Under the pieces are notes generated by a model. That model was not told the origin of the DNA and ran no database searches. It saw nothing but the letters and a program-made list of their open reading frames with translations. DNA of 64,000 bases from an uncultured virus (IMG/VR IMGVR_UViG_3300032397_003421) (Duplodnaviria; Heunggongvirae; Uroviricota; Caudoviricetes): the IMG/VR virus record IMGVR_UViG_3300032397_003421; one strand, written 5' to 3'. Each line of letters opens with the position of its first letter. The stretch's first letter is position 1. Positions 18,235 to 53,020 of this stretch are shown here, in pieces. The translations under genes and the position numbers were made by a program.

Positions 18235-18254
18235 TTCTATTTTCTCCTATTAAT

Positions 18255-18283
18255 AAAATATAAACTAATTATAAAAAATTAAA
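18255..18283 (-). promoter_or_regulatory. Early-type sigma70-like promoter (TTTAAT-N17-TATTTT)
   Basis: Member of a repeated intergenic motif. Confidence 0.5.
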
Positions 18284-18318
18284 CTTTAAATAAGAATTTA
18301 AATTCTTATTTAAAGTTT
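18281..18318. terminator. Perfect 38-bp palindrome, probable terminator
   Basis: aaactttaaataagaattt|aaattcttatttaaagttt just downstream of 18332-18625. Confidence 0.55.
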
Positions 18319-18331
18319 TTTATTATTTAAA

Positions 18332-21041: not shown

Positions 21042-21081
21042 TTTTTAACCATCCTTTTTTTAATTTTAATATCTTATATAT

Positions 21082-21110
21082 AATATATAAAAAATTTATG
21101 AAAAATTAAA
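21082..21110 (-). promoter_or_regulatory. Early-type promoter TTTAAT-N17-TATATT
   Basis: Repeated intergenic motif. Confidence 0.6.
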
Positions 21111-21242
21111 CTTTTTTACTTAATTTCTTCTAGTGTAAACTATTATCTCGATTCATTTTTTGAATATTTTAAAAATAAAAAAATATAATTTGTTCTATTA
21201 TTATTATTATAATTAGAATAATAAAAAGAAATATCATTTTTT

Positions 21243-26157: not shown

Positions 26158-26178
26158 AAAATTTCCTTTATACTATAT

Positions 26179-26207
26179 AGTATATAAAATTTATTTAAAA
26201 AATTAAA
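26179..26207 (-). promoter_or_regulatory. Early-type promoter TTTAAT-N17-TATACT
   Basis: Repeated intergenic motif. Confidence 0.6.
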
Positions 26208-30923: not shown

Positions 30924-30956
30924 TTTAATATCCCTTTTTTAAAAGCTTATATTTAT

Positions 30957-30984
30957 AATATATAAAAAAATTTAAAAAATTAAA
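30957..30984 (-). promoter_or_regulatory. Early-type promoter TTTAAT-N16-TATATT
   Basis: Repeated intergenic motif. Confidence 0.55.
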
Positions 30985-33751
30985 CTATTATTTTAAAATT
31001 ATTAGTATTTCTTACATTTAATCTTTGTAAACATTCATTCCATTCTTCTTGATGTAAATCCCAATATTGTTTACCATATCCATATTTCCATATTTCACCA
31101 TATTTAATATCAGCCATTAGTTTCACTTGATTATTATCAATATTTTTATAATATGGTATTTCCATCCAATATTTAATAATTTTACAAACTTCTTCTATTT
31201 CATTCAAGTCTAGTTCAAATACAATCTCATCATGTACATTTATAAGTATTTTAGATTTTAGATTTTTTTCTTTAAATTCTTTCCAAATATTAATCATTGC
31301 AATAATAGTAGTTTGACCACTTGTTCCTTGTACTGGAGCATTTATTGCAGCATTTAATAAGTTACCAACATCAAAAGAAGATTGTTTTTTATTATAAAAA
31401 CTATCTTTTCCAATATAAGTTAATTGAGGCAATCTTCTTTTTCTTCCTAATAGAGATTTCACCCATCCATATTTTTTAGCATGTTCACGATTATTTGTTA
31501 TATATGTTGCTACTTCTGGATATGATTTATAAAATGCATCTAAAAATTTATTTCCTTCTTCAGTTGAAACTCCAAATAGATTTGCAATACCATATCCAGT
31601 AGCTCCATAAAATCCTTGAAAATTTAGCGACTTGGATTTACCTCTCCATTCTACAAATTCTTTATCTTCTTGACCATCTATTTTAGTTTTTGAAAATACT
31701 TCTTCATATGTTGTTTTTTTATTTAATAATTCAAATAATTGTACGCAAGTATAACAATGCATATCTTTATTTTCAAGTATAAGAGATTCAAGAATACCAG
31801 GACCTGATATTTGAGAAAATATACAAACTTCCATTGCATCATAATCTGCAAAAGCCATAACCATATTTTTTGACGGTAAAAATATTTTTCTAAATTCTTT
31901 TGTTTTTGGCATATTTTGCCAATTTATAGAAGACCCTAAACCACCTCCTCCTGACATTCTACCAGTTTCAGTTCCATGTAATTTATATCCACCATATAAT
32001 CTATTATTATATATAGAAGCTAAAAATCCTTTTTCATTTTCTTCAAGTTCATCTTCATTACCAAATAATGCGTCTCTAGTAGATTCTTTTTGTTGTAATG
32101 AATATCCAAATTGAGAAATTTCTTTTGTAATATGATTATATTCTGCAATTTTTTTCATGAATGGTAAATTAGATTCTTCTGCATATCTTTCTAGTGTTTC
32201 TTTATCAAGTGTTAAATCACCATTTTTATTTAAAAGTTCTTTGCCATCAGAATTTGTTAATACTTTAAAATTTTCTAAATTTCTTAAAACTTTACTTAAT
32301 TCTTTACCACTTTTTAAATTAAAAGTATATCCAGCAATTTTATATAATTCTTGTTCTGTTTCTAATGCTTGTATTTTTAATTGTTTTACATATTCATTTA
32401 AATATTTAATATCAATTTGAACACCAGTCATTTCTATATCTATAATCATTGGTATTGCTGGCATTATAAACTTATAAAAATTATCTTTTATAAATAAATC
32501 TTCTAATTCTAATCTATTTTTAAAATAAATATATAATTGATATGTAATTATACTATCATAACAAGCATATTCAAGTAATAATTGTTCTGGTAATTTTGTA
32601 AAATCAGTATTTTTATTCTGTTTAATATATTGTTTTAACTTAATATCATATCCACCTAATTGTGTATAAATCCAAGTTAATTGTTTTAATCCATTGGGGG
32701 TATTTTCATTAAGAAGATGAGAAGCTAACATAGTATCAAAAGTACATTTTGCATTATATATTCCATTACTAATTAAAAACTTCAAATCAAATTGGGAATG
32801 ATGCAAGCAAAAATCAATATCAGTTCTATTAAATAATTCAATTAATAAATTTTTATCTATTTGATCAAAATAACAAAAATATCCAGATCTACCATCAAAA
32901 GAAAATTGAATACTATACAATTTTCCTTCTATATAATTTAAATTAGAAGTTTCAATATCTATAGCAATTGCAATAATATCTTTATTTTTTATAAGTTCTT
33001 TAAGAAAAGAATTTGGATTTTTTTCTAAAAATAAATTATATTTTGAAATTCTTCTTTTATTTTCTACTATAGAAGATACTTTATTTTTTATAAGTTCTTT
33101 AAGAAAAGAATTTGGATTTTTTTCTAAAAATAAATTATATTTTGAAATTCTTCTTTTATTTTCTACTATAGAAGATAAAATAAATTTAAATTGTTGAGTA
33201 ATAAATTTATATTCATAGACATCTTTTATAGTGTCACTTATCCATTGATATAAAGCAGGAATTGGAAATATTTTACAATTAAATTCTTGAGAATATAACC
33301 AACAATCATCTTTTTGATATTCTTGTAATGAATTATTAACTGGAATAAAAAAATGTTCAGCTCGTAATCCTTTACTTTCTGTAATAGAATATAATGCTCT
33401 ACCTGTAGTTATAATACATTTTGGATTATATTTTTCTATTATTTTTTTTATATTATATTCTTTACATTTTACGTAAGTATTTATTGTATCTTGTGAAGAA
33501 AACCCAATAGGAGTACATCCAAGAGCTGGAATAATAGCATATTTTATATTTTTAAAATAATTTTCACATAATTTTAAAAAAGGATTTAATTTATCAAATG
33601 TTTCTTTAAATTCAAGCAATATTAAAACATCTATATTTTCTTGATTTATTGAATTTCCATAATGTTCATTATATGTATTTGTATAAATAGTACTTTTATT
33701 TGCAGCACAACTACATTTTTGTATTTTCTTTTTTTGTAAAAAATCTTCCAT
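30980..33751 (-). CDS. polA: Family A DNA polymerase with 3'-5' exonuclease and N-terminal UDG-like domain
   Basis: DIETS, HHSQFD, DTMLAS, YACYD; TETGRMS, NWQNMP, ADYDAME, KSLNFQGFYG, GRKRR, NAPVQG, VHDE. Confidence 0.95.
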   Translation of the reverse strand: MEDFLQKKKIQKCSCAANKSTIYTNTYNEHYGNSINQENIDVLILLEFKETFDKLNPFLKLCENYFKNIKYAIIPALGCTPIGFSSQDTINTYVKCKEYNIKKIIEKYNPKCIITTGRALYSITESKGLRAEHFFIPVNNSLQEYQKDDCWLYSQEFNCKIFPIPALYQWISDTIKDVYEYKFITQQFKFILSSIVENKRRISKYNLFLEKNPNSFLKELIKNKVSSIVENKRRISKYNLFLEKNPNSFLKELIKNKDIIAIAIDIETSNLNYIEGKLYSIQFSFDGRSGYFCYFDQIDKNLLIELFNRTDIDFCLHHSQFDLKFLISNGIYNAKCTFDTMLASHLLNENTPNGLKQLTWIYTQLGGYDIKLKQYIKQNKNTDFTKLPEQLLLEYACYDSIITYQLYIYFKNRLELEDLFIKDNFYKFIMPAIPMIIDIEMTGVQIDIKYLNEYVKQLKIQALETEQELYKIAGYTFNLKSGKELSKVLRNLENFKVLTNSDGKELLNKNGDLTLDKETLERYAEESNLPFMKKIAEYNHITKEISQFGYSLQQKESTRDALFGNEDELEENEKGFLASIYNNRLYGGYKLHGTETGRMSGGGGLGSSINWQNMPKTKEFRKIFLPSKNMVMAFADYDAMEVCIFSQISGPGILESLILENKDMHCYTCVQLFELLNKKTTYEEVFSKTKIDGQEDKEFVEWRGKSKSLNFQGFYGATGYGIANLFGVSTEEGNKFLDAFYKSYPEVATYITNNREHAKKYGWVKSLLGRKRRLPQLTYIGKDSFYNKKQSSFDVGNLLNAAINAPVQGTSGQTTIIAMINIWKEFKEKNLKSKILINVHDEIVFELDLNEIEEVCKIIKYWMEIPYYKNIDNNQVKLMADIKYGEIWKYGYGKQYWDLHQEEWNECLQRLNVRNTNNFKIIV
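32980..33177. repeat. Exact 99-bp tandem duplication within polA
   Basis: 32980-33078 equals 33079-33177; SSIVENKRRISKYNLFLEKNPNSFLKELIKNK occurs twice. Confidence 0.95.
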
Positions 33752-33772
33752 TTATTTTTTCCTTATTTTGAT

Positions 33773-33801
33773 AATATATAAACTAATTATAAAAATTTAA
33801 A
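33773..33801 (-). promoter_or_regulatory. Early-type promoter TTTAAA-N17-TATATT (polA)
   Basis: Repeated intergenic motif. Confidence 0.55.
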
Positions 33802-34225
33802 TTTTTTCTACTTCAATCCCTCTATTTTTTAAAAAATCTATTCCAGAAGAATCTCTATATTCTTCTCTATAAAAAACTTTTTTAATACCAGCAGATAGAA
33901 TTTGTAAACTACAATTAAAACATGGAGATAATGTTATATAGATTGTTGATCCATTAGGAGAAATACCTTGTTTTGCTGCTTTATGTATGGCATTAAGTTC
34001 TGAATGCATTACTTCTTTTCTAGTAACTAATTCTCCCAGTTCATTAATATATTCACATTCATTGTCCATTCCCATGGGCATACCATTATATCCATATGCT
34101 ATAATATTATGATCTTTAACAATAACGCATCCAACCTTATTACGAGTTGCATAAGACATCTGGGATGTATTAACTGCAATAGACATATATAATTGATCAT
34201 ATTGTTTTATTCGTTCCTTATTCAT
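33797..34225 (-). CDS. dCMP deaminase
   Basis: KVGCVIV, GYNG, HSELNAI, SPCFNC; start likely ATG 34225 (track extends to 34240). Confidence 0.92.
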   Translation of the reverse strand: MNKERIKQYDQLYMSIAVNTSQMSYATRNKVGCVIVKDHNIIAYGYNGMPMGMDNECEYINELGELVTRKEVMHSELNAIHKAAKQGISPNGSTIYITLSPCFNCSLQILSAGIKKVFYREEYRDSSGIDFLKNRGIEVEKI

Positions 34226-34937
34226 TATAACTTTCCACAATTTGTGTAATCATATTAAAATCTTTTTCATAACAATGTAAAGAATTGGCTTCCCAAATAA
34301 TTTCACCTATTTCAAGAGTATTATACTTTTCTTTTAATTTATTATACATTTTAAGATATACAAAACAATGCCATGCCAGATCATTGAATGTTCCATATAT
34401 AATATCATTACTTCTCATGTTAACAATATATATAAGTTTATTCTCTCTTACAAATTGTTGAGTATTAAAAGTACAACAATAATCAGACATTCCATCTCTA
34501 TTATAATCGTTTACCATAGAGGGTCGATTATATAGCATACAGGCCCTACGTGATTCCTTATTATTTAATAATTCATTTAATGAAAATTCATATTGATTAT
34601 AATTTTCTTTAGAAAAAATGCACCACCCATAATTAGAATTTATTTCTTTTCTATTATCTTTTGTACATACCTCATTCCATATTTTAACGTCGTCTACATA
34701 CCCTATAATAGATAGCGACTGAGATAAATACCATTTTAATTCTTTCTCTACATATTTTTCTGGTGTTTTTCTTATATTATTAAAATTCAAAATAGATTGC
34801 ATTGGATCTAACCCTTCTATTTTTGCTCCTATTATTTCAACAACTTTAACACCAGTTTTATCTATTACAAACTTTTTATTTTGTATATCATTATACAGTT
34901 GTCTAAAATAGGGTAAAAGTATTTGTTCATTTGTCAT
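34218..34937 (-). CDS. dCMP hydroxymethylase (T4 gp42-like, thymidylate synthase superfamily)
   Basis: INSNYGW, SRRA, RPSM..DYN.DGMSDYCCT, MRSNDIIYGTFNDLAW (Asp at the dCMP-specificity position as in gp42), SLHCYE. Confidence 0.88.
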   Translation of the reverse strand: MTNEQILLPYFRQLYNDIQNKKFVIDKTGVKVVEIIGAKIEGLDPMQSILNFNNIRKTPEKYVEKELKWYLSQSLSIIGYVDDVKIWNEVCTKDNRKEINSNYGWCIFSKENYNQYEFSLNELLNNKESRRACMLYNRPSMVNDYNRDGMSDYCCTFNTQQFVRENKLIYIVNMRSNDIIYGTFNDLAWHCFVYLKMYNKLKEKYNTLEIGEIIWEANSLHCYEKDFNMITQIVESYNE

Positions 34938-34952
34938 TTAATTTTCCTTTAA

Positions 34953-35309
34953 TTAACATCTATTATAATTATCAATATAACGAATAATATCTTCTTCATC
35001 TAATTTTTCACCACATTGAATTTCTATTACTTGAAGTTCATTCATTGTTTTATTTTCTAATCGATGTAATTGCAAATTGTCTATATAAATAAAATCATTA
35101 TAAAAATATTCTTTAATAATATTATCAACTGTAACGGTTGCAATTCCATTTACAACTACCCAATGTTCAGATCTATGTTTATAATATTGTAAAGATAAAC
35201 TTTGTAATGGATTTACAGATAATAGTTTTACTTTATATTTTTCATTATTTAAAATAACTTGATAATATCCCCATGGTTTATTAACTTTCATATAAAAATA
35301 ATCCTTCAA
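34953..35309 (-). CDS. Cupin, phosphomannose isomerase type II C-terminal-like
   Basis: KPWGYY..KVK.L.V.P..SLSLQY..HRSEHWVVVNG..HRLEN..IEIQ.G..EEDIIR. Confidence 0.85.
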   Translation of the reverse strand: MKDYFYMKVNKPWGYYQVILNNEKYKVKLLSVNPLQSLSLQYYKHRSEHWVVVNGIATVTVDNIIKEYFYNDFIYIDNLQLHRLENKTMNELQVIEIQCGEKLDEEDIIRYIDNYNRC

Positions 35310-36498
35310 TATCTTTAATTACATTATTTGAAATTTCTTCAAAAGCTCCTTGATTATTTCTAATTTTAATTTCTTTAAATTCATTTGTATTAATATAATC
35401 TAAAGAATCTAGTGCATAATTTAATTTTTGTACTATGCTATCAACTATAGGTGAATCACCATCATGATCGATATAATAAGGATACTTTTTACCACCTCTT
35501 CTAGCATATTCAAAAACCATAGGCATTATAGTAATATTATTACAATAAAGAGACTCCACTTGACTACACCCCCCCATTCTCTCAAGAATAAATCCATGAA
35601 AGCTAATATCTGCTTTCCATAATAATTCAAAGTATTCTTGTCTATTAAGAGATCCTTCTTTATAAATATAGAGAGGTTTAACTAATTCTTTTAATTCATC
35701 TATGGAATATTTTCCAGATGGATTTGTAAATATAACTTGAAAATCTTTTCTTTTTTCATAAAGTTTATTTACTGCTTCAATAAATTCTATGTGATGAGTA
35801 TAGTTTATACCACTTAATCTATTGAGAAATAATATAGTTTTCTTTTCAAATTTTTCTTCTAATTTATAAGTATCAGCCTCTTTTTTAGAAAATCCAAAAT
35901 CCCAAATAAAACTTTTCTTTTTAATTTGATTTATTTTATTTGATTTAAAAACTAATTTAGCATTATTAAAAAAAGCTTCTTTTGTTGATTTACAAGTAAA
36001 AATACAAAGATCAGAACATTCATATCCATCAAATTGTCTATATTGATAACTTATTTCAGTAGCCACTTTTGCTTCATTAATTTCAGGAGTATCCATCCAA
36101 TAACAACAAGAAATTAACTTTGTTTCTTTTGATTTTTGAAATAAATATGTTTTTATATTTCTAGAAAGTTCTATAATATTATTCCATACAATATCAATCT
36201 TTGGAAGTTCTTTAAAAATAGAATCAAATTCAATAATATTAAAATGTTGTCGTATTGTAAATGCATCAATAGGATAAGTATAGGGAATAAAAATAACATT
36301 TTTGTGTTTAAAGATATTATCATAAGATTTTATGTCAGCAAAATCTTTAAGTGGTGCAATAAGAATATAAACTGTCCAATTTATCTTTTCAACAATTTCA
36401 GTTAAAATCCCAACTAGCATATTAATGTTACTATCAGCGCTAATCCATTTATTTTCATTATTATAAATACTTTGTTGCAAAATATATAAAATATTCAT
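35281..36498 (-). CDS. GT-B fold glycosyltransferase
   Basis: 405 aa two-domain; ILFLNRLS, LNRQEYFELLWKAD, ERMGGCSQVES (E-x7-E-like). Confidence 0.75.
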   Translation of the reverse strand: MNILYILQQSIYNNENKWISADSNINMLVGILTEIVEKINWTVYILIAPLKDFADIKSYDNIFKHKNVIFIPYTYPIDAFTIRQHFNIIEFDSIFKELPKIDIVWNNIIELSRNIKTYLFQKSKETKLISCCYWMDTPEINEAKVATEISYQYRQFDGYECSDLCIFTCKSTKEAFFNNAKLVFKSNKINQIKKKSFIWDFGFSKKEADTYKLEEKFEKKTILFLNRLSGINYTHHIEFIEAVNKLYEKRKDFQVIFTNPSGKYSIDELKELVKPLYIYKEGSLNRQEYFELLWKADISFHGFILERMGGCSQVESLYCNNITIMPMVFEYARRGGKKYPYYIDHDGDSPIVDSIVQKLNYALDSLDYINTNEFKEIKIRNNQGAFEEISNNVIKDIEGLFLYES

Positions 36499-37181
36499 TT
36501 ATTATCTCCTATTATATTTTTTAAATGCGCTTCACTTCTATTTCTTAATTTAATTTTATGTTTTCTAAGTATTTTGCTAATAGGCCCACCATAGACATTA
36601 TATCTTTTTCCTATTGTATAAGGTGATTCTTTTAAATTTAAATATGAAAAAATTATTTCTTTTTCTTGCTCATCTGTAAAAAATTTACCACTAGCTTCTT
36701 GTAAATTTCTTTTATGCACATTATTTTCTTTTAATATTCTTTCAATAACCGCACCACTAACATTAAATATTTTTCCTATATTTTTTAAAGATATTTTGTC
36801 ATTATACATATTTAAAATAGATATAGTTTGTGATTGAGAAAATTGAATTTTACTTCTTCCAGGACAATCTGTATTATCTGGATCCTGTTTATTATACCCA
36901 AATTCACTATTTTTTGTTTTATAAAAGTCTATATAATATTTTTCCTTTTGTCTAAGAGTATCTTCATTATATTCTGATAGTAATTCGATAATATAAAAAT
37001 TAAAATTTTCTTTGCCGTATTTTAATAATGAAAATCTTAAATATTTATTTATGGCCTCATTTTTTAAAAATAATTGCATATGATCTTTTAACCTTGACTG
37101 AACATATTTAGAACTTCCAATATATTTTTTGTTATTTATTTTATTTTCAATACAATATATTCCAGGTTGTACAAATAGCAT
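36495..37181 (-). CDS. GIY-YIG homing endonuclease with repeated HTH DNA-binding modules
   Basis: GIYCIENKINNKKYIGSS..R..H; GYN; two C-terminal IGK.FNV..I..IL repeats. Confidence 0.88.
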   Translation of the reverse strand: MLFVQPGIYCIENKINNKKYIGSSKYVQSRLKDHMQLFLKNEAINKYLRFSLLKYGKENFNFYIIELLSEYNEDTLRQKEKYYIDFYKTKNSEFGYNKQDPDNTDCPGRSKIQFSQSQTISILNMYNDKISLKNIGKIFNVSGAVIERILKENNVHKRNLQEASGKFFTDEQEKEIIFSYLNLKESPYTIGKRYNVYGGPISKILRKHKIKLRNRSEAHLKNIIGDNK

Positions 37182-37682
37182 TTATTCTCCTATGAATTCT
37201 TTTATTTTTAATATTTGATTTTCTAAATTTTCATCTGTAGTATCTAATATAAGATATTCACATTTTGTTTTTTTAAGAAATTCAATATAATATTGTTTTA
37301 TTAATTTTATTTTATTTTGATTAATAACATCATCAATATATATTTTATATTCTTTTTTAAAACAATAAATAAGTTTTAATTTCAACTTAGAAAACTCTTC
37401 ATCTATTTGCCATATAAAATTTTCATTAAATTGTCTATCTAATGCTAAGGAATATGAAAAATGACAAGCAATTCCACGATCCATAATTAAATTAGTTGGA
37501 ACTTGTTTTAAATAATCTATAAAAAATCTACTTTCATATTCTACTGAAAGATCAATTTCATTATTTTTAAAATATTCTTTTGTATTATTATTTCTATAAT
37601 ATGAAATATTTAATAACTTAGATATTATTTGAGCAATTGTTGTTTTTGCTGTTCTATCAGGACCAATAAATTGAATCAACAT
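37182..37682 (-). CDS. dNMP kinase (thymidylate kinase-like P-loop)
   Basis: IGPDRTAKTT and LIMDR motifs. Confidence 0.75.
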   Translation of the reverse strand: MLIQFIGPDRTAKTTIAQIISKLLNISYYRNNNTKEYFKNNEIDLSVEYESRFFIDYLKQVPTNLIMDRGIACHFSYSLALDRQFNENFIWQIDEEFSKLKLKLIYCFKKEYKIYIDDVINQNKIKLIKQYYIEFLKKTKCEYLILDTTDENLENQILKIKEFIGE

Positions 37683-37693
37683 TAAATTTTTCC

Positions 37694-38383
37694 TTATATT
37701 TTTTCTAAAAAATAAATCACATCTCTACTTAATTTATAATTATTCCAAGCAAATAAAACTCGTTGAATTTCAATTGGTAAAATAGTAAACTCTTCTATTG
37801 CACAATTATTTAAATAATTATCATTTGACATACTCCATCCATGTACATCTAATATTTTGAGTCCATTTTGATTAAAACAATCTTCAAGTTCTTTATAAGT
37901 ATATTCATAATTATGATATTTTGGCCAATTTACAATATTTGATATTTGATTTGGTGTACTTATAATTAAATATTTAAAAGGTAAATTACAAATTTTATTA
38001 AAAATTTCTATTCCTTTTTCTTTTGAATCAAAATGTTCAATTACATCTAATAATAATAAACAATCAATTTTATTTTTTAAAATAATTTCTTGAATAGTTA
38101 AAAATACATTTTCTGTTTTATAAAAAATTCCATTACTACAAAGATTATCATATATAATTGAATCTCTATAATCAATACCAAAATAAGAAATAATTTTATT
38201 TGATTCAATTAATAATTTATTAATATATGCTGTATCACAACCCACATCAATAATTGATTCAATATTATTTTTAATAATAAATTCTCTAACAGATTGATCT
38301 TTAAATAATTTACTTATATATCCAGGATCAAGATCTATTTTAGATAATTGTTGTCTTAATGATGACATATCAACAATAGTCAT
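37694..38383 (-). CDS. Class I SAM-dependent methyltransferase
   Basis: IIDVGCD, FGID, LLDVIEHF, IISTPN, H..EYTYKEL. Confidence 0.85.
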   Translation of the reverse strand: MTIVDMSSLRQQLSKIDLDPGYISKLFKDQSVREFIIKNNIESIIDVGCDTAYINKLLIESNKIISYFGIDYRDSIIYDNLCSNGIFYKTENVFLTIQEIILKNKIDCLLLLDVIEHFDSKEKGIEIFNKICNLPFKYLIISTPNQISNIVNWPKYHNYEYTYKELEDCFNQNGLKILDVHGWSMSNDNYLNNCAIEEFTILPIEIQRVLFAWNNYKLSRDVIYFLEKI

Positions 38384-39408
38384 ATTTTTTCTAAATTTAC
38401 CATTTCAATTACCCATGGTATAATTTCATCTAATGCTTTATTTAATGAAGTTTCTGCTTTAAATCCTAATAACTTTTCTGCTTTATCAATAGAAGGAATT
38501 CGGCATTGTACATCATATTCATACGGGTTATCTGAAATATAATTAAACTCTACATTAGAATTTAATCTATCCCAAATAATTTTTGCAAGTTCTAATACAG
38601 TATAACTTTCAGGGGTACTTAAATTAAAATCAGTATTTAATGCATTTTCATTAAAAATGGCTTGATAAATCCCTTCTGCTAAATCTCCTGCATATGTATA
38701 ATGGCGTATTTGATTTCCTTTTCCAAGAATATGAAGCGGGTTTTGACCTTTAATTATTTTTTGTATAAGATCAGGTATTACATGGCTAAGAGCTAATTTA
38801 ATATTACCAGACATAACTACTGTTTCTGTCATAGCTGCTTGTTCCCCAATTCCAGCTGCATTAAATGGTCTTACAATAGTATATGGAAGTTTATATTGTT
38901 CATATGCACCTTTAACAAAATATTCAATTGCAAGTTTTTGAAATCCATATGTTGATAATGGAGGTGGGCAAATCAATTGATCTCCTTCTTTTGAAGGAAA
39001 AGTTTCTGTTGATTCAAAAACCATACTTGAAGATATTGCAATTATTTTTTTAAGAAATCCTTCTTTATGCGCTTTAATTGCAATATCAAAAATAGATGCG
39101 GTAAGTCTTTCATTTTCAGCAAGTAAATCATAAGCCAATTCATGAAAGAAACTTATACCACCAATCCACGCAGCTCCATGCACAATATAATCTATTTTAT
39201 TAGAAAAAATTATATTTTCTAAAATATCTTTATTTTTTGCATCACCATAAAAATGAAAATAATTTGGATGTTTATCAAAACTTTTTTCTAATGGACCATA
39301 TTTCCAATCATTATCTACTCCATAAACAATATGACCTTCATTTAATAATTTTTGTATTGAATATCCTGCAATAAAACCTCGATCACCAGTCCAAAATATT
39401 TTAGCCAT
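38380..39408 (-). CDS. NAD-dependent nucleotide-sugar epimerase/dehydratase/decarboxylase (extended SDR)
   Basis: TGDRGFIAG, HGAA, SSSMVFE, YGFQK, RPFN, GKGNQIRHYTY; start ATG 39408 coupled to the upstream stop. Confidence 0.9.
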   Translation of the reverse strand: MAKIFWTGDRGFIAGYSIQKLLNEGHIVYGVDNDWKYGPLEKSFDKHPNYFHFYGDAKNKDILENIIFSNKIDYIVHGAAWIGGISFFHELAYDLLAENERLTASIFDIAIKAHKEGFLKKIIAISSSMVFESTETFPSKEGDQLICPPPLSTYGFQKLAIEYFVKGAYEQYKLPYTIVRPFNAAGIGEQAAMTETVVMSGNIKLALSHVIPDLIQKIIKGQNPLHILGKGNQIRHYTYAGDLAEGIYQAIFNENALNTDFNLSTPESYTVLELAKIIWDRLNSNVEFNYISDNPYEYDVQCRIPSIDKAEKLLGFKAETSLNKALDEIIPWVIEMVNLEKI

Positions 39409-40640
39409 TAATTTCTCCAATTATTATATAAATTTTCTTTTAATATATTCCATCCATCAATTACTATTTTATCATTAAATTCTTCTTTAGTAAAAGTAAG
39501 ATATTCTTTATGATTTATTGCTATAATAATAATATCACATTGTTTAACTTCTTCTATTGAATAATTTATAAAAATCATATTATTATATTTATCATTATAT
39601 TCTCCTAACGGAAGATTAGGTTCATTTATTTTAATTTGTTCTGGTAAATTACGTTCTAAATATCTAATTAATTTAGGTGTTAAATTATCTCTAGTATCAT
39701 CAGTATTACTTTTAAATGTAAATCCAAAAATTCCAATAGTTTTATTTTTAATATCATTTTGAATTAAATCAACATAAAATTTTGGTGTAAATTCATTAAT
39801 TTTGTAAGCTTGTAATATTAAATCTGTTTGTGGAAAATTTTCATTAATCATTCCCCAATCTTTCGTTAAACATGTGCCTTTTGCAAAACCAGGAGTCAAT
39901 AATCCTTTATTTCTATCATATCCAGGATTCATTAAAGAAAATAATTTATATATATCAACTCCAAATGATTGTGACATATATGAAAAATAATTAGGAATTG
40001 CCATATTTATGTAACGATAAATATTTGTAAATAATTTACTTAATTCAGCTTCAATAAAAGTTGATTTAAAGATTTGAATTCCTAAAATAGAAAAAATATT
40101 TTTTGCAAGATCAAAACTAATATCATCTTTTACTCCAATAACTTGAGGTAATTCTAATAATTCTTTATATGCTTCGCCTTCAACTATTCTTTCAGGACAC
40201 ATTGCTAAATAAAAATCTTTACCAAGAATATAGTTTGTTTTATTTTCAATAATATTTTTGATATACTCAGTTGTATTAGGTGCAACTGTTGATCTAAGAA
40301 TAATTAATTTATTTTTAATATCTATTTTAGAAATTAAATCATTAATTACGAATGTTACTTGAGATAAATCTGTTTCAATATGTTCTCCTAGTGGAGTTCC
40401 AACAGTTAGTATATATGCTTTTGCATCAGGGTAATTTTCATATTTTGAATTATAAATTGTAAAAGTTTCTTTAACTAATTCATCATATCCTGGTTCATAA
40501 AATGGCATTTTATTATTTTTAATACCCTCTATCATTTCATCATTAATATCTACACCACAAACATTTAACTTTTTTTCTCGTAAAGATAATGCCAATGGAA
40601 GACCAACTCTTCCACATCCTATTACACAAATATCATACAT
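39408..40640 (-). CDS. Nucleotide-sugar 6-dehydrogenase (UDP-glucose / GDP-mannose / UDP-ManNAc family)
   Basis: VIGCGRVGLP, VGTP, LRSTV.P, CPER, AELSKLFTN, GTCLTKD, FKSNTDDTRD. Confidence 0.92.
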   Translation of the reverse strand: MYDICVIGCGRVGLPLALSLREKKLNVCGVDINDEMIEGIKNNKMPFYEPGYDELVKETFTIYNSKYENYPDAKAYILTVGTPLGEHIETDLSQVTFVINDLISKIDIKNKLIILRSTVAPNTTEYIKNIIENKTNYILGKDFYLAMCPERIVEGEAYKELLELPQVIGVKDDISFDLAKNIFSILGIQIFKSTFIEAELSKLFTNIYRYINMAIPNYFSYMSQSFGVDIYKLFSLMNPGYDRNKGLLTPGFAKGTCLTKDWGMINENFPQTDLILQAYKINEFTPKFYVDLIQNDIKNKTIGIFGFTFKSNTDDTRDNLTPKLIRYLERNLPEQIKINEPNLPLGEYNDKYNNMIFINYSIEEVKQCDIIIIAINHKEYLTFTKEEFNDKIVIDGWNILKENLYNNWRN

Positions 40641-40662
40641 ATATTAACTCCATTTTTATTTT

Positions 40663-41157
40663 CTATTTTATTCCCGTACTTCCAAAACCACCACTTCCTC
40701 TTGAAGATTCTTTATCTATATAAAGTTCTGAAAATTCTACTTCATATGGTAAAAGATAAGAAATAGGAATTAGTATAAATTGAATTATTTTTTCATTTTG
40801 TTCTATAACCACTATTTCATTAGAAGAATTAATAAGAGAAATATGTATTTCACCTAAATAATCTTCATCTATAGTTTCTGCTGCTTTTATTAAACCTCTT
40901 CTTGAACTTATTCCAGATTTATTAAATGCGTTTAACATAAATCCATCTGGTATATTTGCATGAATACCTGATGGAATTAAACATCTTTCATTTGGATTTA
41001 GGATAATTGCTGTATTATTTATTTGAATATTTGAATTTTTTAATTTAAAATCTAATAAAAATTGTGAATCAAATACAGGAATAAAAAAATCTATTCCAGC
41101 AGATTTTGGAGTTGATCTAATTGGACTTTTTACCTCTCTAATTTTCGAAAATTTCAT
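40663..41157 (-). CDS. dut: Trimeric dUTPase family protein (copy 1, divergent motifs)
   Basis: SAGIDF, NKSG, TIDEDYLGEI, KIIQFIL, RGSGGFGSTG. Confidence 0.85.
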   Translation of the reverse strand: MKFSKIREVKSPIRSTPKSAGIDFFIPVFDSQFLLDFKLKNSNIQINNTAIILNPNERCLIPSGIHANIPDGFMLNAFNKSGISSRRGLIKAAETIDEDYLGEIHISLINSSNEIVVIEQNEKIIQFILIPISYLLPYEVEFSELYIDKESSRGSGGFGSTGIK

Positions 41158-41185
41158 TAACTATATTCTCCTTATTATTAATTCT

Positions 41186-41479
41186 TTATTTTATTAAAAA
41201 TCTTATTTGATCAGAATCCCCTTTAGAAGAAATTTTCATAAATGATAAAAATTCAGCAGGTAGAGACTTATAAGTTTGAGAATAATATCCACTAAGTGTT
41301 TTATTACCAATACTATGCCAAATTCCTACACCTTCTTGTATAAATTCTTTTAAACTCTTAGTTGATTCATATTCAGTATATTCTTTTGAAATAAGGTAAG
41401 TACTCAGCATAAAATAAAATTTTAAACTATTTATTATTTCATATCTTGAAGAATCTTCATTATTATTCAAAATTACCAC
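41186..41479 (-). CDS. Hypothetical protein
   Basis: 97 aa, first gene after the promoter at 41498-41526. Confidence 0.45.
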   Translation of the reverse strand: MVILNNNEDSSRYEIINSLKFYFMLSTYLISKEYTEYESTKSLKEFIQEGVGIWHSIGNKTLSGYYSQTYKSLPAEFLSFMKISSKGDSDQIRFLIK

Positions 41480-41497
41480 CTTTTTAATATATTTTTA

Positions 41498-41526
41498 TAT
41501 ATATAAAATTTTTATAAAAAATTAAA
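41498..41526 (-). promoter_or_regulatory. Early-type promoter TTTAAT-N17-TATATA heading the modification operon
   Basis: Repeated intergenic motif. Confidence 0.55.
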
Positions 41527-41529
41527 CTT

Positions 41530-41724
41530 TTAATTTTCTTTTATTGCATTCGCTGGACATTCAAAATTTATAATACAAGTTTTACAATTTTTACATTTAG
41601 TTTGATCTATAGTACTTTGTGAATATCCTTTCTTAATTATATTTAAATGATCTATTTGAATAGCTTCAAAAGGACATTCTTCTACACACATCCCACACGA
41701 AATACAGTCTTCTATAATTCTCAA
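41530..41724 (-). CDS. 2x[4Fe-4S] ferredoxin
   Basis: CISCGMCVEECP and CKNCKTCIINFECP. Confidence 0.85.
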   Translation of the reverse strand: MRIIEDCISCGMCVEECPFEAIQIDHLNIIKKGYSQSTIDQTKCKNCKTCIINFECPANAIKEN

Positions 41725-42548
41725 TCTATTTCTCCTATTTTATAATAGCAAATTTCATTTAATACGGTTTCTCTTTTTCTATTAGGACTTATATTTTTTA
41801 ATTTATTCAAATAGATTTTATTTTTAAAATATTTATTACCTATTTCATTCTCTATATCAAAATAAATAATATCATTGGAAATAAAATCTAATTGTTTAAA
41901 CATTTCTTCCAAATCCTGTATACTCCATCCATTAGAATTAACCATTTTATTTATTTGATAGGGGGGATCTAAAATATATAAACTATTTTTTAAATTTATA
42001 ATATTAAAAGCATTATTTGATATAAATAATTTATCTTTAATGAGTTTAAAGTTTTTTAAAGAATATTCAAAATCTCTACATGTATAATTACTAATAAACC
42101 TGTTCCCAAAACTTTGATTAAATCCATTAGGTCCAAATCTATACATAGTATTTATACAACTATTTACTAAAATTATTAAACCAAATGCTTCTTCTTTAGT
42201 CTGCTTTTTCCATAAAATATTATTAAAATAATCTCTAAAATTATAATATCCATTATAAGTTGAAACATTATATTGAAGATTATTTACGTAAGTAGTAAAC
42301 TCACCTTCATCTATTAAGAATAGATGTTCATAAATATTTAATAAATTAATATCTATTTCTGAAACATAATAACTATTAAATTGTTTTTGTAAATTTAATA
42401 ATATTTGTGCAGAACCTAAAAAAGGTTCAACATAAATATTTTTATTTGATTTTTTTACAAGATCATTTATCATATCTAAATGAATAAGTTTATTACCCAT
42501 ATATTGGAATAGTCTAGATATAATTTGTTTTCTTTGTAAAAAACTCAA
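41721..42548 (-). CDS. Dam-like (D12 class) DNA N6-adenine methyltransferase
   Basis: FQYMGNK, YVEPFLGSA, RF...GFNQSFG, ILDPPY. Confidence 0.85.
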   Translation of the reverse strand: MSFLQRKQIISRLFQYMGNKLIHLDMINDLVKKSNKNIYVEPFLGSAQILLNLQKQFNSYYVSEIDINLLNIYEHLFLIDEGEFTTYVNNLQYNVSTYNGYYNFRDYFNNILWKKQTKEEAFGLIILVNSCINTMYRFGPNGFNQSFGNRFISNYTCRDFEYSLKNFKLIKDKLFISNNAFNIINLKNSLYILDPPYQINKMVNSNGWSIQDLEEMFKQLDFISNDIIYFDIENEIGNKYFKNKIYLNKLKNISPNRKRETVLNEICYYKIGEID

Positions 42549-43276: not shown

Positions 43277-43435
43277 TTATTCCTTTATTTTATTAAATTT
43301 TGGACAAACTATTTGTACAACTAAATGAGATTGTTTACATCTTTCTTTACATTTTTTACATAATTCTGAAAAATTAGACCAATACCATTTACTATATTGT
43401 TTATCTGACATTGAATTAATATTTATATTTTCCAT
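43277..43435 (-). CDS. Small Cys-rich protein (52 aa, below the ORF-track cutoff)
   Basis: CKKCKERCKQSHLVVQIVCPKF; coupled to the dUTPase stop codon. Confidence 0.5.
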   Translation of the reverse strand: MENININSMSDKQYSKWYWSNFSELCKKCKERCKQSHLVVQIVCPKFNKIKE

Positions 43436-43869
43436 TATTTTGTACCTGTTGACCCAAAACCACCTCTTGGATTATCTGTCATATGTTCTACTTCTGTAAT
43501 AAGTATTTGAGGCATTTTTTCTACTACTCGAAATTGACAAACTCTATCATTCTTTTTTATATAAGATTCTCTTGTTGCATATATTGGCATTTTTACAATA
43601 TCAGATTCTCCACAAAACGATTCATCTAAAATTCCCATAGAATTTATTTGTAAAATTCCCCAAATTTTAAAAGTAGAAGATCTTGGTAATATATGCATTT
43701 CATATCCAGGAGGAACTTTAACAGATACACCTAAATCAATAAGTCTAAAATCACCTTGTTCTATATGATAATCATAAGCACTTCTTAAATCTATCCAATC
43801 TCCTTTCTCTATTTTTTCTATTTTAATTAAATCTAATACATGATATTTTACTTTTAATTCAAGAATCAT
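43435..43869 (-). CDS. dut: Trimeric dUTPase (copy 2)
   Basis: GDWIDL, PRSSTF, GILDESFCG, RVCQFR, RGGFGSTG. Confidence 0.9.
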   Translation of the reverse strand: MILELKVKYHVLDLIKIEKIEKGDWIDLRSAYDYHIEQGDFRLIDLGVSVKVPPGYEMHILPRSSTFKIWGILQINSMGILDESFCGESDIVKMPIYATRESYIKKNDRVCQFRVVEKMPQILITEVEHMTDNPRGGFGSTGTK

Positions 43870-44377: not shown

Positions 44378-44402
44378 AATCTTTTCTCCTTGTTTTTTTT
44401 AT

Positions 44403-44430
44403 ATTATATAAAAAAATTTTTAAAATAAAA
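44403..44430 (-). promoter_or_regulatory. Early-type promoter TTTTAT-N16-TATAAT
   Basis: Variant of the repeated motif with a consensus -10. Confidence 0.55.
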
Positions 44431-44447
44431 CTTTTAAAAAAATTATA

Positions 44448-50844: not shown

Positions 50845-51999
50845 TTAACATTTTCTTGAAATAAGTAATTGTTCTAAAAAATATTCCATTATTGTTTTAT
50901 ATAATTTATTTCCTAATACTAAATCTTCACTTTCAGATTCTATACTTGGATTATCATTTACTTCTATTATATAACAAATATTATTTTTAACTTTTAAATC
51001 AACACCATAAAATCCATTACCAATATGTTTAGTTGTTTTTAACGCAGTATTTATTATTTCTAATGGAACATTTTTTATTTTAAATGTTTTAACTTCACCC
51101 TCTACTTTTTTTAAAGAATCCCAATTTACAATTTGCCAATGATTTTTTACCATAAAATATTTACATGCATAAATAACTTTATTATTTAATATTCCTATTC
51201 TCCAATCATAATTAGTTTTAATAAATTCTTGCGCGATTATAAGATCAGATTTTTGTAAAAATAAAAATATATTTTCATAATATTGTTCTTTATTATTTAT
51301 TTTTATTACTCCTTGACAAAAAGAACTATCGGGTAATTTTAATACAAAAGGAAAATTAAAAAGATTTAATACAGTATCAATATTATATTTACTTATTATT
51401 ATTGTTTTAGGTTGTTGTATATTATAGTATTTTAATAATTCAGTCAAATATACTTTATTTGTACATCTAACAATTGATTTAGGGTCATCAATTACAATTA
51501 TATTATTATTATATGCAAGTTTTGCAATTTTAAAAGTATGATCTTCTATACTTGTTGTTTCTCTAATAAATAAAGCATCAAATTTATTTAATCTATTTAT
51601 ATCAGCTTTTGAAATTATTTCTACGTTAAATCCAATACTTCTTCCTTGTTCTACAAATTTTTCAATTGCAGTATTATCTGAAGGAGGTATTTTTTCTTCT
51701 TTATTTAAAAGAATTGCTAAATTAAAAGATTTACTTTTTCTTTTATTTTTATTTTTATTTATTTTTAATATATTATCTATACTTGGATAAACAATATGAT
51801 TTCTTGCTAAAGCAATTAATGATACATAATATCCTATAGATTGATACGTATAACTCTTACAAAAATTAAAAATTATTATTTTTTCATTTTTATTTCTTTC
51901 AAAATTAAATAAATAATCTTTAGCTACTATTATTTTAGCAAAAGAAATATTGAATTTTAATTCATTAATATCTTCAACAACTATATAATTTAACATCAT
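50845..51999 (-). CDS. RimK-family ATP-grasp ligase with RLAN-like N-terminal domain
   Basis: NFCKSYTYQSIGYYVSL.A.AR.H..YPS; DALFIRETT; CTNKVYL; VLKLPDSSF; QEF..YDWRIG; GVDLK; IEVNDNP. Confidence 0.85.
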   Translation of the reverse strand: MMLNYIVVEDINELKFNISFAKIIVAKDYLFNFERNKNEKIIIFNFCKSYTYQSIGYYVSLIALARNHIVYPSIDNILKINKNKNKRKSKSFNLAILLNKEEKIPPSDNTAIEKFVEQGRSIGFNVEIISKADINRLNKFDALFIRETTSIEDHTFKIAKLAYNNNIIVIDDPKSIVRCTNKVYLTELLKYYNIQQPKTIIISKYNIDTVLNLFNFPFVLKLPDSSFCQGVIKINNKEQYYENIFLFLQKSDLIIAQEFIKTNYDWRIGILNNKVIYACKYFMVKNHWQIVNWDSLKKVEGEVKTFKIKNVPLEIINTALKTTKHIGNGFYGVDLKVKNNICYIIEVNDNPSIESESEDLVLGNKLYKTIMEYFLEQLLISRKC

Positions 52000-52156: not shown

Positions 52157-52213
52157 AATCTTCTAAAAAATCTTATTTGACTTTTTAATATTACAATTAA
52201 TTTTGAGAATTAT

Positions 52214-52522
52214 TTAACAACTTTTTTTTGTAAGCTCTGCTTTTTTTATAGATTCAGTTTTTTTAACTGCATCACAATCTGCAGTACATTTTATTTTTGC
52301 TTTAGTACAAGCATTAATTTTTTTCTTATCTTTAGCAGCATCTTTTATACAAGTATTATTTTTTTTGTCACAATCAACTTTACATGTACCTTTTAATTCT
52401 ACTTTTGCAGATTCAATTTTTTTTATAGATTCTTTAACATTTACTTCTTTTTGATCAGATGAACAGGCAATAAAATTTAAAGCAAACAGCAATATAAGTG
52501 AAAAAATTGAAAATTTTTTCAT
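52214..52522 (-). CDS. Cys-rich lipoprotein
   Basis: MKKFSIFSLILLFALNFIAC signal; symmetric six-Cys array; GGAGG RBS. Confidence 0.65.
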   Translation of the reverse strand: MKKFSIFSLILLFALNFIACSSDQKEVNVKESIKKIESAKVELKGTCKVDCDKKNNTCIKDAAKDKKKINACTKAKIKCTADCDAVKKTESIKKAELTKKSC

Positions 52523-52720
52523 ATAGTTAGTCCTCCATTGGTATTATTTAATTTTTTTAATCAAATTATATTATTATTTGAAATACTCTTACTTAAAAAA
52601 GTTCCTATCTTCCAAATTAAAAATAATGAGATTTTATTTTATTAGTAAAAAAATAAAATAAATTATTTTTAATTTAATTTATCAAAATATTTTATGCTTT
52701 CTGATTTTTTTATATAAGTA

Positions 52721-53020
52721 TTATATCTCCTTAATGTATAATACTTCTTTAAGAGTGAGCATTCCATATTTATTATTTTTAGGATTAATAAAAGAAACAA
52801 AATTACTGTCTATATCAGGTAATCCTTGTGAATACCAATCACCATATTTAGTTTCAATTTTATATAACGTTAATCCTTTATCTATACATATTTGTTTCAT
52901 TTCTTCAATAAAATCTTCCAGCATAGGAAGTATTATCTCATTTTCTTTTTCTTCTTCTTTTTTTTCTTTTTTAATTACATTTAAAAACTTTTCTTTAAAA
53001 TTCATACTATATTTCTCCAT
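52721..53020 (-). CDS. Hypothetical protein
   Basis: 99-aa ORF overlapping the helicase end. Confidence 0.45.
   Translation of the reverse strand: MEKYSMNFKEKFLNVIKKEKKEEEKENEIILPMLEDFIEEMKQICIDKGLTLYKIETKYGDWYSQGLPDIDSNFVSFINPKNNKYGMLTLKEVLYIKEI

Follow-up and report, generated by a model that had tools for sequence, protein, structure and literature searches.

The question raised by the uncultured Caudoviricetes record IMGVR_UViG_3300032397_003421, of which a stretch of 64,000 nucleotides (hereafter the window) was analysed, is what chemistry is carried out by a gene unit on its minus strand (33797-41479). Our analysis suggests, with moderate confidence, that this unit is a cytosine-hypermodification module, by which 5-hydroxymethylcytosine (5hmC) in phage DNA would be glycosylated with an acid sugar that the phage makes itself. 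An earlier sequence-only reading had proposed that 5hmC is made before replication and then glycosylated with a phage-made sugar, and this core proposal appears well supported by sequence and comparative genomics; the nucleotide half of the predicted pathway is well supported, and synteny argues for 5hmC as the acceptor of the glycosyltransferase (GT). The module is real and conserved, and it would be a new variation on the known strategy of 5hmC glycosylation for hiding phage DNA from nucleases.

All ten genes named in that reading were found on the minus strand between 33797 and 41157, tightly packed. Neighbouring genes of the unit overlap or are separated by no more than 28 nt, and the only larger gaps, of 45 nt (33752-33796) and 50 nt (41480-41529), bound it on both sides. 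The phage, which comes from sediment metagenomes, is contractile-tailed and encodes a family A polymerase and an anaerobic ribonucleotide reductase: genes for tail sheath, tube, tape measure and baseplate occupy 1-16.7 kb on the plus strand, and a long minus-strand block encodes a clamp loader, a DnaB-like helicase, the polymerase, anaerobic NrdD/NrdG, a UvsX-like recombinase and an SbcC-like nuclease. The polymerase gene, polA, which the earlier reading had also placed in the phage backbone, lies just beyond the downstream gap. The GC content of the 64-kb window is ~20-32%, i.e., very AT-rich DNA. The cupin and SDR proteins encoded in it are recorded from a contig of 147,505 nt. The cluster was partly present in 12 sediment or freshwater metagenome runs, with at least half of the sampled words in nine of them, two of which may be its source. 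The nearest record, an IMG/VR fragment of 83 kb with an estimated completeness of 54% (G001), was used as the comparison genome.

The nucleotide half of the pathway is centred on a thymidylate synthase (TS) homolog of the T4 gp42 type, a predicted synthase of 5-hydroxymethyl-deoxycytidine monophosphate (5hm-dCMP) (34218-34937, minus strand; PF00303, 8.9e-16). Among all chains of the Protein Data Bank (PDB), its first match by phmmer was T4 dCMP hydroxymethylase (1b49/1b5d/1b5e, E 6e-53), and CMP hydroxymethylase and thymidylate synthases matched at ~5e-7. The motif MRSND..G..NDLAW, on which the earlier assignment had been built, is present, and HMMER pairs it with NMRSNDVVFGFRNDYAW of T4 gp42. 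The catalytic Cys155 aligns with T4 Cys148 (ThyA C146); Asp186, at the position of ThyA N177, aligns with the Asp in T4 RNDYAW; Asp152, three residues ahead of the catalytic Cys, stands at the position of ThyA L143; and Asp178, in RSND, stands at that of ThyA D169. According to the accessible part of a recent study (PMC13326640), N177D confers dCMP specificity and L143D/E the hydroxymethyl product, both marking 5hm-dCMP synthases, and D169N marks flavin- and O2-dependent 5-hydroxy-dCMP synthases; the last of these marks is thus lacking in the window enzyme. The same pattern extended to the TS homologs near members of the GT family wherever the site was covered, with the catalytic Cys in 30/30, Asp at D169 in 30/30, Asp at N177 in 31/31, and Asp or Glu at L143 in 28/30 (Asn in the other two). 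The 83 kb of G001 gave neither a second ThyA match nor any match to ThyX, and the PHROG scan of the window showed no further TS. Conversion of dCMP to 5-hydroxymethyl-dCMP by the TS homolog is thus strongly supported by sequence. Furthermore, the anaerobic NrdD/NrdG genes and the sediment habitat would fit an oxygen-independent hydroxymethyl route rather than an O2-dependent 5-hydroxy route.

The link between this enzyme and the GT comes from comparative genomics. Relatives of the GT were collected at 55 loci (nine from IMG/VR and 46 from metagenomes); five same-contig duplicates were dropped, and 46 loci were left after clustering at 95% GT identity. Counts were taken on the 17 of these 46 loci with at least 3 kb on either side of the GT, using profiles built from the module proteins. 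An Asp-type TS homolog lay within 6 kb of the GT in 16 of the 17 loci, and the module kinase was present in 16 as well. The short-chain dehydrogenase/reductase (SDR), the sugar dehydrogenase (11 full length and four in a shorter form) and the dUTPase-family gene were each found in 15, and the dCMP deaminase in 12. The association of a gp42-type enzyme, this GT and a sugar dehydrogenase, which the earlier reading had put forward as a check on itself, was therefore borne out. Gene order differs among the loci, and GC content, measured in eight of the IMG/VR loci, spans 27-47%. That the GT family travels with dCMP-specific hydroxymethylase-type enzymes and a deoxynucleoside monophosphate (dNMP) kinase is the strongest available argument for 5hmC in DNA as the likely acceptor. 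Against phage records, blastn of the cluster gave only short matches, in the TS and deaminase genes of T4-like phages. Twelve of the 17 loci also carry a gene of the uracil-DNA glycosylase (UDG) superfamily (PF03167), which sits inside the module of relatives (e.g., L003:8947-9507 and L009:11146-11739) and is found nowhere in the window; the N-terminus of the window polA (residues 1-245) gave no match to the module UDG profile and none in Pfam at E<=1.

The GT itself (35281-36498, minus strand), a GT-B enzyme of the GT4-like, retaining type, is proposed to be a DNA 5hmC glycosyltransferase on the basis of its AlphaFold model and its neighbourhood. The window protein had no match in Pfam (E<=0.01), PHROG or NCBIfam, and sequence matches within its family were scattered (PF00534 in 7/38 members, PF13692 in three and PF13439 in one). 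The AlphaFold (AF2) model was of high confidence (pLDDT 95.2, pTM 0.92) and displayed the two Rossmann domains of the GT-B fold; its nearest solved folds were MshA (Z 32.0, root-mean-square deviation 3.0, 359 residues aligned), BshA (30.6), PimA (28.6) and PglA (28.2). Three residues, E306, G310 and E315, are invariant in the family and are reminiscent of what we take to be the EX7E motif, with one residue extra. The T4 alpha- and beta-glucosyltransferases were absent among the 50 structural matches listed for the GT (Foldseek, VIA), a distant relation being still possible. The nearest predicted viral structures were those of uncultured Caudovirales proteins and Arthrobacter phage glycosyltransferases, with uncharacterised proteins of KARL-1, SSE1 and Muldoon, the SP-15 GT and the GT of Rhizobium phage RL2RES further down the list. 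A word-index search recovered 102 relatives, mostly unnamed metagenomic proteins, some of them on contigs of 165-732 kb, and a profile of 38 relatives retrieved 598 cluster representatives at E<=0.001, of which 111 reached E<=1e-30, out of 1.84 billion, which indicates that the GT family is distinct, modest in size and mostly metagenomic. No match was obtained by tblastn against 50,697 phage records, i.e., the family is carried by no isolate of this collection.

The sugar donor would be made by two adjacent enzymes. The first (39408-40640, minus strand) is a nucleoside diphosphate (NDP)-sugar 6-dehydrogenase of the WecC/Cap5O-like branch, with 269.6 bits to TIGR03026 (cut-off 189.8) and matches to all three domains (PF03721, PF00984 and PF03720). 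Its PDB matches were led by UDP-N-acetylmannosamine (UDP-ManNAc) dehydrogenase (4r16, 2e-46) and Cap5O (7e-41), with UDP-glucose dehydrogenases at 4e-24 and weaker. It fell below every equivalog cut-off among the WecC, TviB, TuaD and AglM models (177.4/750, 152.4/459, 77.9/592, 108.6/700 and 127.7/670), the UDP-ManNAc type being the nearest. A uronic acid, as the sequence-only reading had it, agrees with the enzyme family; since the enzyme is nearer to UDP-N-acetylhexosamine than to UDP-glucose dehydrogenases, an N-acetyl-hexosaminuronic acid seems equally likely as a plain uronic acid. At seven relatives' loci, including L007:7443-8243 and L008:5693-6433, a shortened dehydrogenase of 246-266 aa, without the C-terminal UDP-binding domain, occupies the same spot upstream of the SDR.

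The second enzyme (38380-39420, minus strand; PF01370, 3.6e-34) is an extended SDR with an NDP-sugar as its predicted substrate and epimerisation as its most likely reaction, and the motif SSSM[VI][FY]E together with YG[FM]QK was present in 25/25 members of its family. Its relatives are very numerous (at least 8000 at E<=1e-20); of the 120 that were listed, many measure 339 aa and show 61-66% identity, some of them in named bacteria. In a bacterial scan with one genome per species, 583 of 600 candidate stretches were confirmed for the SDR, and the best 80 of the 583 were examined: the SDR is 57-64% identical to the bacterial proteins in these loci, and a dehydrogenase homolog, ~35% identical to that of the phage, stands directly upstream within 300 nt in 76 of the 80. 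Six bacterial loci were annotated, with GT2 enzymes, GtrA, a GT2-PMT_2 fusion, RgpF and other glycan genes as neighbours; GT2 genes follow the pair in four, and GtrA and PMT_2-type genes in one. The order of the pair is the same in bacteria and in the window, but in the phage it adjoins a GT4-like enzyme and nucleotide-metabolism genes instead of GT2 genes. The bacterial pair, too, is matched by no NCBIfam equivalog, and literature searches on UDP-N-acetylglucosaminuronic acid (UDP-GlcNAcA) and UDP-N-acetylxylosamine (UDP-XylNAc) did not identify it. By these similarities, the dehydrogenase and SDR appear to be a widespread, unnamed bacterial surface-glycan cassette captured by the phage, and its product is most likely what the GT transfers. 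In the Holophaga foetida locus (L116:4915-5646), a Methyltransf_23 gene adjoins the dehydrogenase-SDR pair, with 23% identity to the phage methyltransferase (pairwise E 4e-5).

Three further genes belong to nucleotide metabolism. The dCMP deaminase (33797-34240, minus strand), which is Cd-like (PF00383, 3.7e-23; phrog_174, 1.4e-53), may supply dUMP for dTMP in a genome of 78% AT. A P-loop dNMP kinase (37182-37682, minus strand) is thymidylate-kinase-like and is proposed to be a 5hm-dCMP kinase, the analogue of T4 gp1. The kinase gene called earlier is thus present, and its family match is weak (phrog_761 thymidylate kinase, 4.6e-5); a family profile of nine members found SPbeta YorR first (2.2e-9), followed by deoxynucleoside and thymidylate kinases. 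Finally, a trimeric dUTPase-family paralog (40663-41157, minus strand; PF00692, 1.9e-16), 27% identical to the second dUTPase of the window (43435-43869), is a candidate dCTPase/dUTPase, and a gp56-like dCTPase role is put forward for it as a hypothesis.

Taken together, these assignments describe a possible pathway. The dUTPase-family paralog and the dCMP deaminase would reshape the pyrimidine pool, and the gp42-type enzyme, the step with strong sequence support, would convert dCMP to 5-hydroxymethyl-dCMP. Judging from conserved synteny, the thymidylate-kinase-like kinase would then yield the diphosphate, host enzymes the triphosphate, and the phage polymerase would put 5hmC into DNA. In parallel, the WecC-like dehydrogenase would oxidise C6 of a UDP-hexose or UDP-N-acetylhexosamine to a uronic acid, on which the SDR, most likely as an epimerase, would act, the substrates of both being predicted from their families. 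The retaining GT4-like GT-B enzyme, as its synteny suggests, would move the acid sugar onto the hydroxymethyl group of 5hmC in DNA. In some lineages including the window phage, an S-adenosylmethionine (SAM) methyltransferase might then, more speculatively, methylate the sugar, and the cupin and GIY-YIG endonuclease genes of the unit would be later insertions. The modification would probably serve to shield the DNA from restriction enzymes and CRISPR nucleases.

Several observations weigh against a module for glycosylated 5hmC. All of its enzymatic steps are deduced from sequence, and the acceptor of the GT is read from gene neighbourhood only, GT4-like folds mostly serving small-molecule or glycan acceptors. 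Three of the counted loci deviate: L050 shows no TS homolog over 17 kb, and the sugar genes are missing from L025 and L054, the L054 GT being only 26% identical to that of the window. Neither the dehydrogenase nor the SDR reaches any curated NCBIfam equivalog, so that the sugar is not assignable from models. The kinase is weakly assignable, and its P-loop, GPDRTAKT, has Ala ahead of the Lys, a position held by Gly in the eight remaining family members; the dUTPase paralog shows ordinary trimeric dUTPase matches and no sign of dCTP specificity; and a methyltransferase is found in only 5 of the 17 relatives. One alternative is that the phage DNA does contain 5hmC, with the dehydrogenase, SDR, methyltransferase and GT acting on another target, e.g., virion proteins, host surface glycans or a soluble metabolite; glycosylation of the DNA would then draw on host sugars or be absent. 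Such a division of labour would suit a bacterial surface-glycan cassette and a GT whose closest folds act on small molecules and lipids, and in the available part of the survey by Pyle et al. (bioRxiv 10.1101/2023.12.21.572611) ~65% of GT-bearing phage contigs are without a base-modification enzyme nearby. However, the GT family is found beside the Asp-type TS homolog and the dNMP kinase despite varied gene order and GC content, and the annotated phage loci showed no gene for a polyprenyl-phosphate GT2, a flippase or a GT-C enzyme; we regard this other use of the sugar genes as unlikely.

A decarboxylating SDR has a somewhat better claim, though we still hold it to be rather improbable. The same glycosylation of 5hmC would then take place with a neutral pentose-type donor (UDP-xylose, UDP-XylNAc or a 4-keto-pentose derivative), and indeed the best PDB matches of the SDR include UDP-glucuronate decarboxylases (4gll, 6.1e-17; 2b69, 6.5e-17), and the best match, 8vr2, for which a literature search gave nothing relevant, carries the TSE motif. 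In addition, the bacterial pair precedes GT2, GtrA and PMT_2-type genes, a layout that presumably resembles an Arn-type logic with a decarboxylated sugar. The next best matches of the SDR, on the other hand, are 4-epimerases (6dnt and 4zrm), and the Glu of UXS1 TSE, which we take to be catalytic in UDP-glucuronate decarboxylases, is aligned by HMMER to a Met (TSE vs SSM) that is invariant in 25/25 family members, so that the SDR lacks the residue that marks the UXS/ArnA enzymes; the epimerase 6dnt reads SSA at this position. Of the two products allowed by the sequence-only reading, an epimer or a pentose, this Met favours the former, i.e., an epimerase over a decarboxylase. It is very improbable, lastly, that the TS homolog adds something other than hydroxymethyl at C5, i.e., the methyl group of XP12 or the hydroxyl group of RB69, with the sugar on that group or absent. 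TS homologs with Asp at N177 do include 5-hydroxy-dCMP synthases, as far as the accessible text of PMC13326640 goes; but these have Asn where the window enzyme keeps Asp at D169, the L143 position is acidic and the T4 gp42 match is strong (6e-53), a methyl group would give the GT no acceptor, and the 5-hydroxy route needs O2 in a phage that has anaerobic ribonucleotide reductase genes. Glycosylation of 5hmC with an epimerised acid sugar is hence the reading that we retain.

How this predicted system relates to known ones is best seen from the T-even phages. T4 glucosylates its DNA using host UDP-glucose, whereas the window phage encodes its own sugar-donor genes and has a family A polymerase in its backbone. 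As in T4, a gp42-type synthase, a dCMP deaminase, a dNMP kinase and a dUTPase-family enzyme are combined, here in one unit, and post-replicative glycosylation, the last step in T4, is the proposed last step in the window phage. The correspondence is incomplete: the window GT is without any Pfam match, the kinase profile misses T4 gp1 at E<=0.1, and the possible counterpart of gp56 is a trimeric dUTPase paralog of uncertain specificity. The earlier reading had likened the phage-made donor to the arabinose of RB69-like phages; these do make their own UDP-arabinose, but it is placed on 5-hydroxycytosine, not on 5hmC (PMC13326640). Within the accessible sections of that study, RB69 and DLP3 share with the window a dCMP-acting TS homolog, a dedicated dNMP kinase, phage-encoded UDP-sugar synthesis and GT-B transferases acting on DNA. 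They differ in that their 5-hydroxycytosine comes from a flavin- and O2-dependent D169N enzyme, whereas the window enzyme keeps D169, and in that their sugar is derived from ribulose-5-phosphate by an isomerase, a kinase/pyrophosphorylase and a phosphatase, in contrast to the dehydrogenase and SDR of the window.

The closest product described is the 5hmC derivative bearing a hexuronic acid (433 atomic mass units), which, in the portion of the work by Pyle et al. that was accessible, was obtained from metagenomic clusters of C5-methyltransferase (C5-MT), 5mYOX(TET) and GT genes, contigs 57 and 91 among them, a partner epimerase being needed in one case (bioRxiv 10.1101/2023.12.21.572611). The same portion includes a survey of metagenomic GT-B genes with ThyS (~28%), epimerases and dCMP deaminase as neighbours, an epimerase-dependent GT subclass, and GT-B enzymes whose nearest folds are BshA/MshA, as for the window GT. 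In the tested clusters 5hmC is made post-replication by methylation and oxidation and the sugars come from Escherichia coli pools; the accessible text describes no phage-encoded sugar 6-dehydrogenase, and the window was compared with these clusters at the level of gene descriptions. Among cultured phages, Maribacter phage Molly_1 (NC_062751) has an analogous row, gp100-gp103, comprising a UDP-glucose dehydrogenase, a nucleotide-sugar epimerase, a 'beta glucosyl transferase' and a thymidylate synthase homolog. Its dehydrogenase and SDR are 31% and 26% identical to those of the window, and its GT is not detectably related to the window GT (best BLASTP E 0.4); its TS homolog, 29% identical, is without Asp at the specificity position in the BLASTP alignment, so it may act on dUMP. 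A term search found no discussion of DNA modification in the Molly_1 paper (PMC8776804). No paper was found in which a ThyA-type route to 5hmC is combined with a sugar 6-dehydrogenase encoded by a phage, subscription journals and closed supplements lying outside the coverage. The statement of the sequence-only reading that no pathway combining these steps is described therefore holds for the exact combination, but not for its parts, hexuronic-acid-5hmC and neighbourhoods of GT-B, ThyS and epimerase genes being known and Molly_1 having its analogous row.

A bolder proposal, which we offer only tentatively, is that the virion DNA contains a base not yet described, namely 5hmC to which an epimerised N-acetyl-hexosaminuronic (or hexuronic) acid is alpha-linked, with O-methylation or methyl esterification of the sugar in some lineages. 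It would be made possible by the separate GT family of ~600 representatives, by the captured bacterial cassette and by cassette swapping among near-identical phages, which might diversify the sugar. If the predicted pathway holds, an acidic and possibly methylated sugar would join the short list of natural pre-replicative DNA glycosylations, and a DNA glycosyltransferase family would be defined. The cassette would also tie phage DNA chemistry to a very widespread, unnamed bacterial sugar-nucleotide pathway, and the phage product would name the bacterial one too. Furthermore, the module enzymes are candidates for 5hmC tagging, and the modified DNA would presumably withstand both restriction enzymes and Cas nucleases and may be under-represented or mis-called in sediment virome sequencing.

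Three other genes of the unit, all of which the earlier reading had listed in the unit, were judged differently after comparison with relatives. The stand-alone phosphomannose isomerase (PMI)-type cupin (34953-35309, minus strand; PF01050, 6e-33) occurs in 0/17 relatives and forms a clean indel relative to G001: window positions 35297-36600 are 100% identical to that genome and 33700-34953 are 84% identical, and 34954-35296 have no counterpart. It is a strain-specific insertion, and its part in the pathway is doubtful. Its nearest homologs are bacterial cupins of 114 aa with at most 53% identity, and no relative was found in the viral contig scan and no sequence match in the PDB. In four sediment runs the matching contigs proved short and thinly covered, their joints having sides of 20-60 letters at 80% identity, and only the cupin-spanning contig was used; this contig, from another run (X3), indicates that the cupin is not an assembly error. 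The GIY-YIG gene (36495-37181, minus strand) likewise appears foreign to the pathway, as it matches homing endonucleases with helix-turn-helix repeats (PF01541, 3.7e-10; TIGR01453, 2.2e-14; phrog_7168) and is limited to the window and its two closest relatives, L002 and G001, being absent from L003-L010. It is probably a free-standing homing endonuclease and a mobile insertion.

The class I SAM methyltransferase (37694-38383, minus strand; PF13489, 2.8e-6) is confirmed as a gene and takes an accessory part only. It had no sequence match in the PDB, and the Atlas gave generic class I methyltransferase clusters only. At the site that has the SDR on one side and the GT or kinase on the other, the window family is found in 3/17 relatives and a non-homologous FkbM methyltransferase in 2/17; two unrelated families at one site favour a role in the pathway, and methylation of the sugar is a speculative suggestion for it. 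In addition, near-identical phages differ in module genes. In L002 (4785-7100) the SDR and dehydrogenase are 49% and 79% identical to those of the window between flanking genes of 99-100% identity, and in G001 (52161-52799) the TS homolog is 67% identical while the SDR is 100% identical. Such a pattern points to ongoing diversifying exchange, which the resident homing endonuclease, located in the middle of the cluster, possibly helps to drive.

Two early-type promoters (41498-41526 and 33773-33801) had been proposed to flank the unit. A shared AT-rich element does occur in both gaps, but sigma-70-like sites in this DNA of 22% GC were at chance level (99 found and 98.1 expected from shuffled sequence), and no terminators were found in the sigma-70 promoter and terminator scan. 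The element has the core GTTTAATTTTTTA, followed ~10 nt further by TTTATAT, and lies upstream of minus-strand gene blocks; hand alignment placed it at 18235-18331, 21042-21242, 26158-26202, 30924-30979, 33752-33796, 41480-41529 and 44378-44447. The upstream gap (41480-41529, minus strand) carries the recurring element and is a putative phage promoter, and the downstream gap (33752-33796, minus strand), before polA, carries a variant. The copy at 33749-33824 had five further matching sites in G001, and a strict pattern recovered two sites in the window, neither of them in a flanking gap; the repeat nature of the element is therefore based on hand alignment and the G001 matches. The element probably represents a promoter type specific to the phage.

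The first gene of the unit (41186-41479, minus strand) encodes 97 aa without a match in Pfam, PHROG or NCBIfam and is conserved in L002 only. Upstream of the unit (41530-42548) are a 64-aa 2x[4Fe-4S] ferredoxin and a D12-class N6-adenine DNA methyltransferase (PF02086, 3.5e-15), by which the phage may methylate adenine too. Within polA, positions 32980-33177 (minus strand) hold a perfect 99-nt tandem duplication (2.0 copies, 100% match), repeating 33 residues in the linker ahead of the exonuclease domain; the duplication may be genuine or may have arisen in assembly, and Logan contigs break there. Just downstream of polA, the gene at 30081-30584 matches both a DenV-like pyrimidine-dimer DNA glycosylase (PF03013) and, strongly, the 'DNA binding protein' family phrog_624, and a RimK-like ATP-grasp ligase (PF14401 and PF08443) is encoded at 50845-51999 in the replication block. 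Among the relatives, a gene for Tad6, a type I Thoeris inhibitor (PF25188, 1.6e-39), lies at L004:3706-4509, a few kb from the 5hmC module of that locus.

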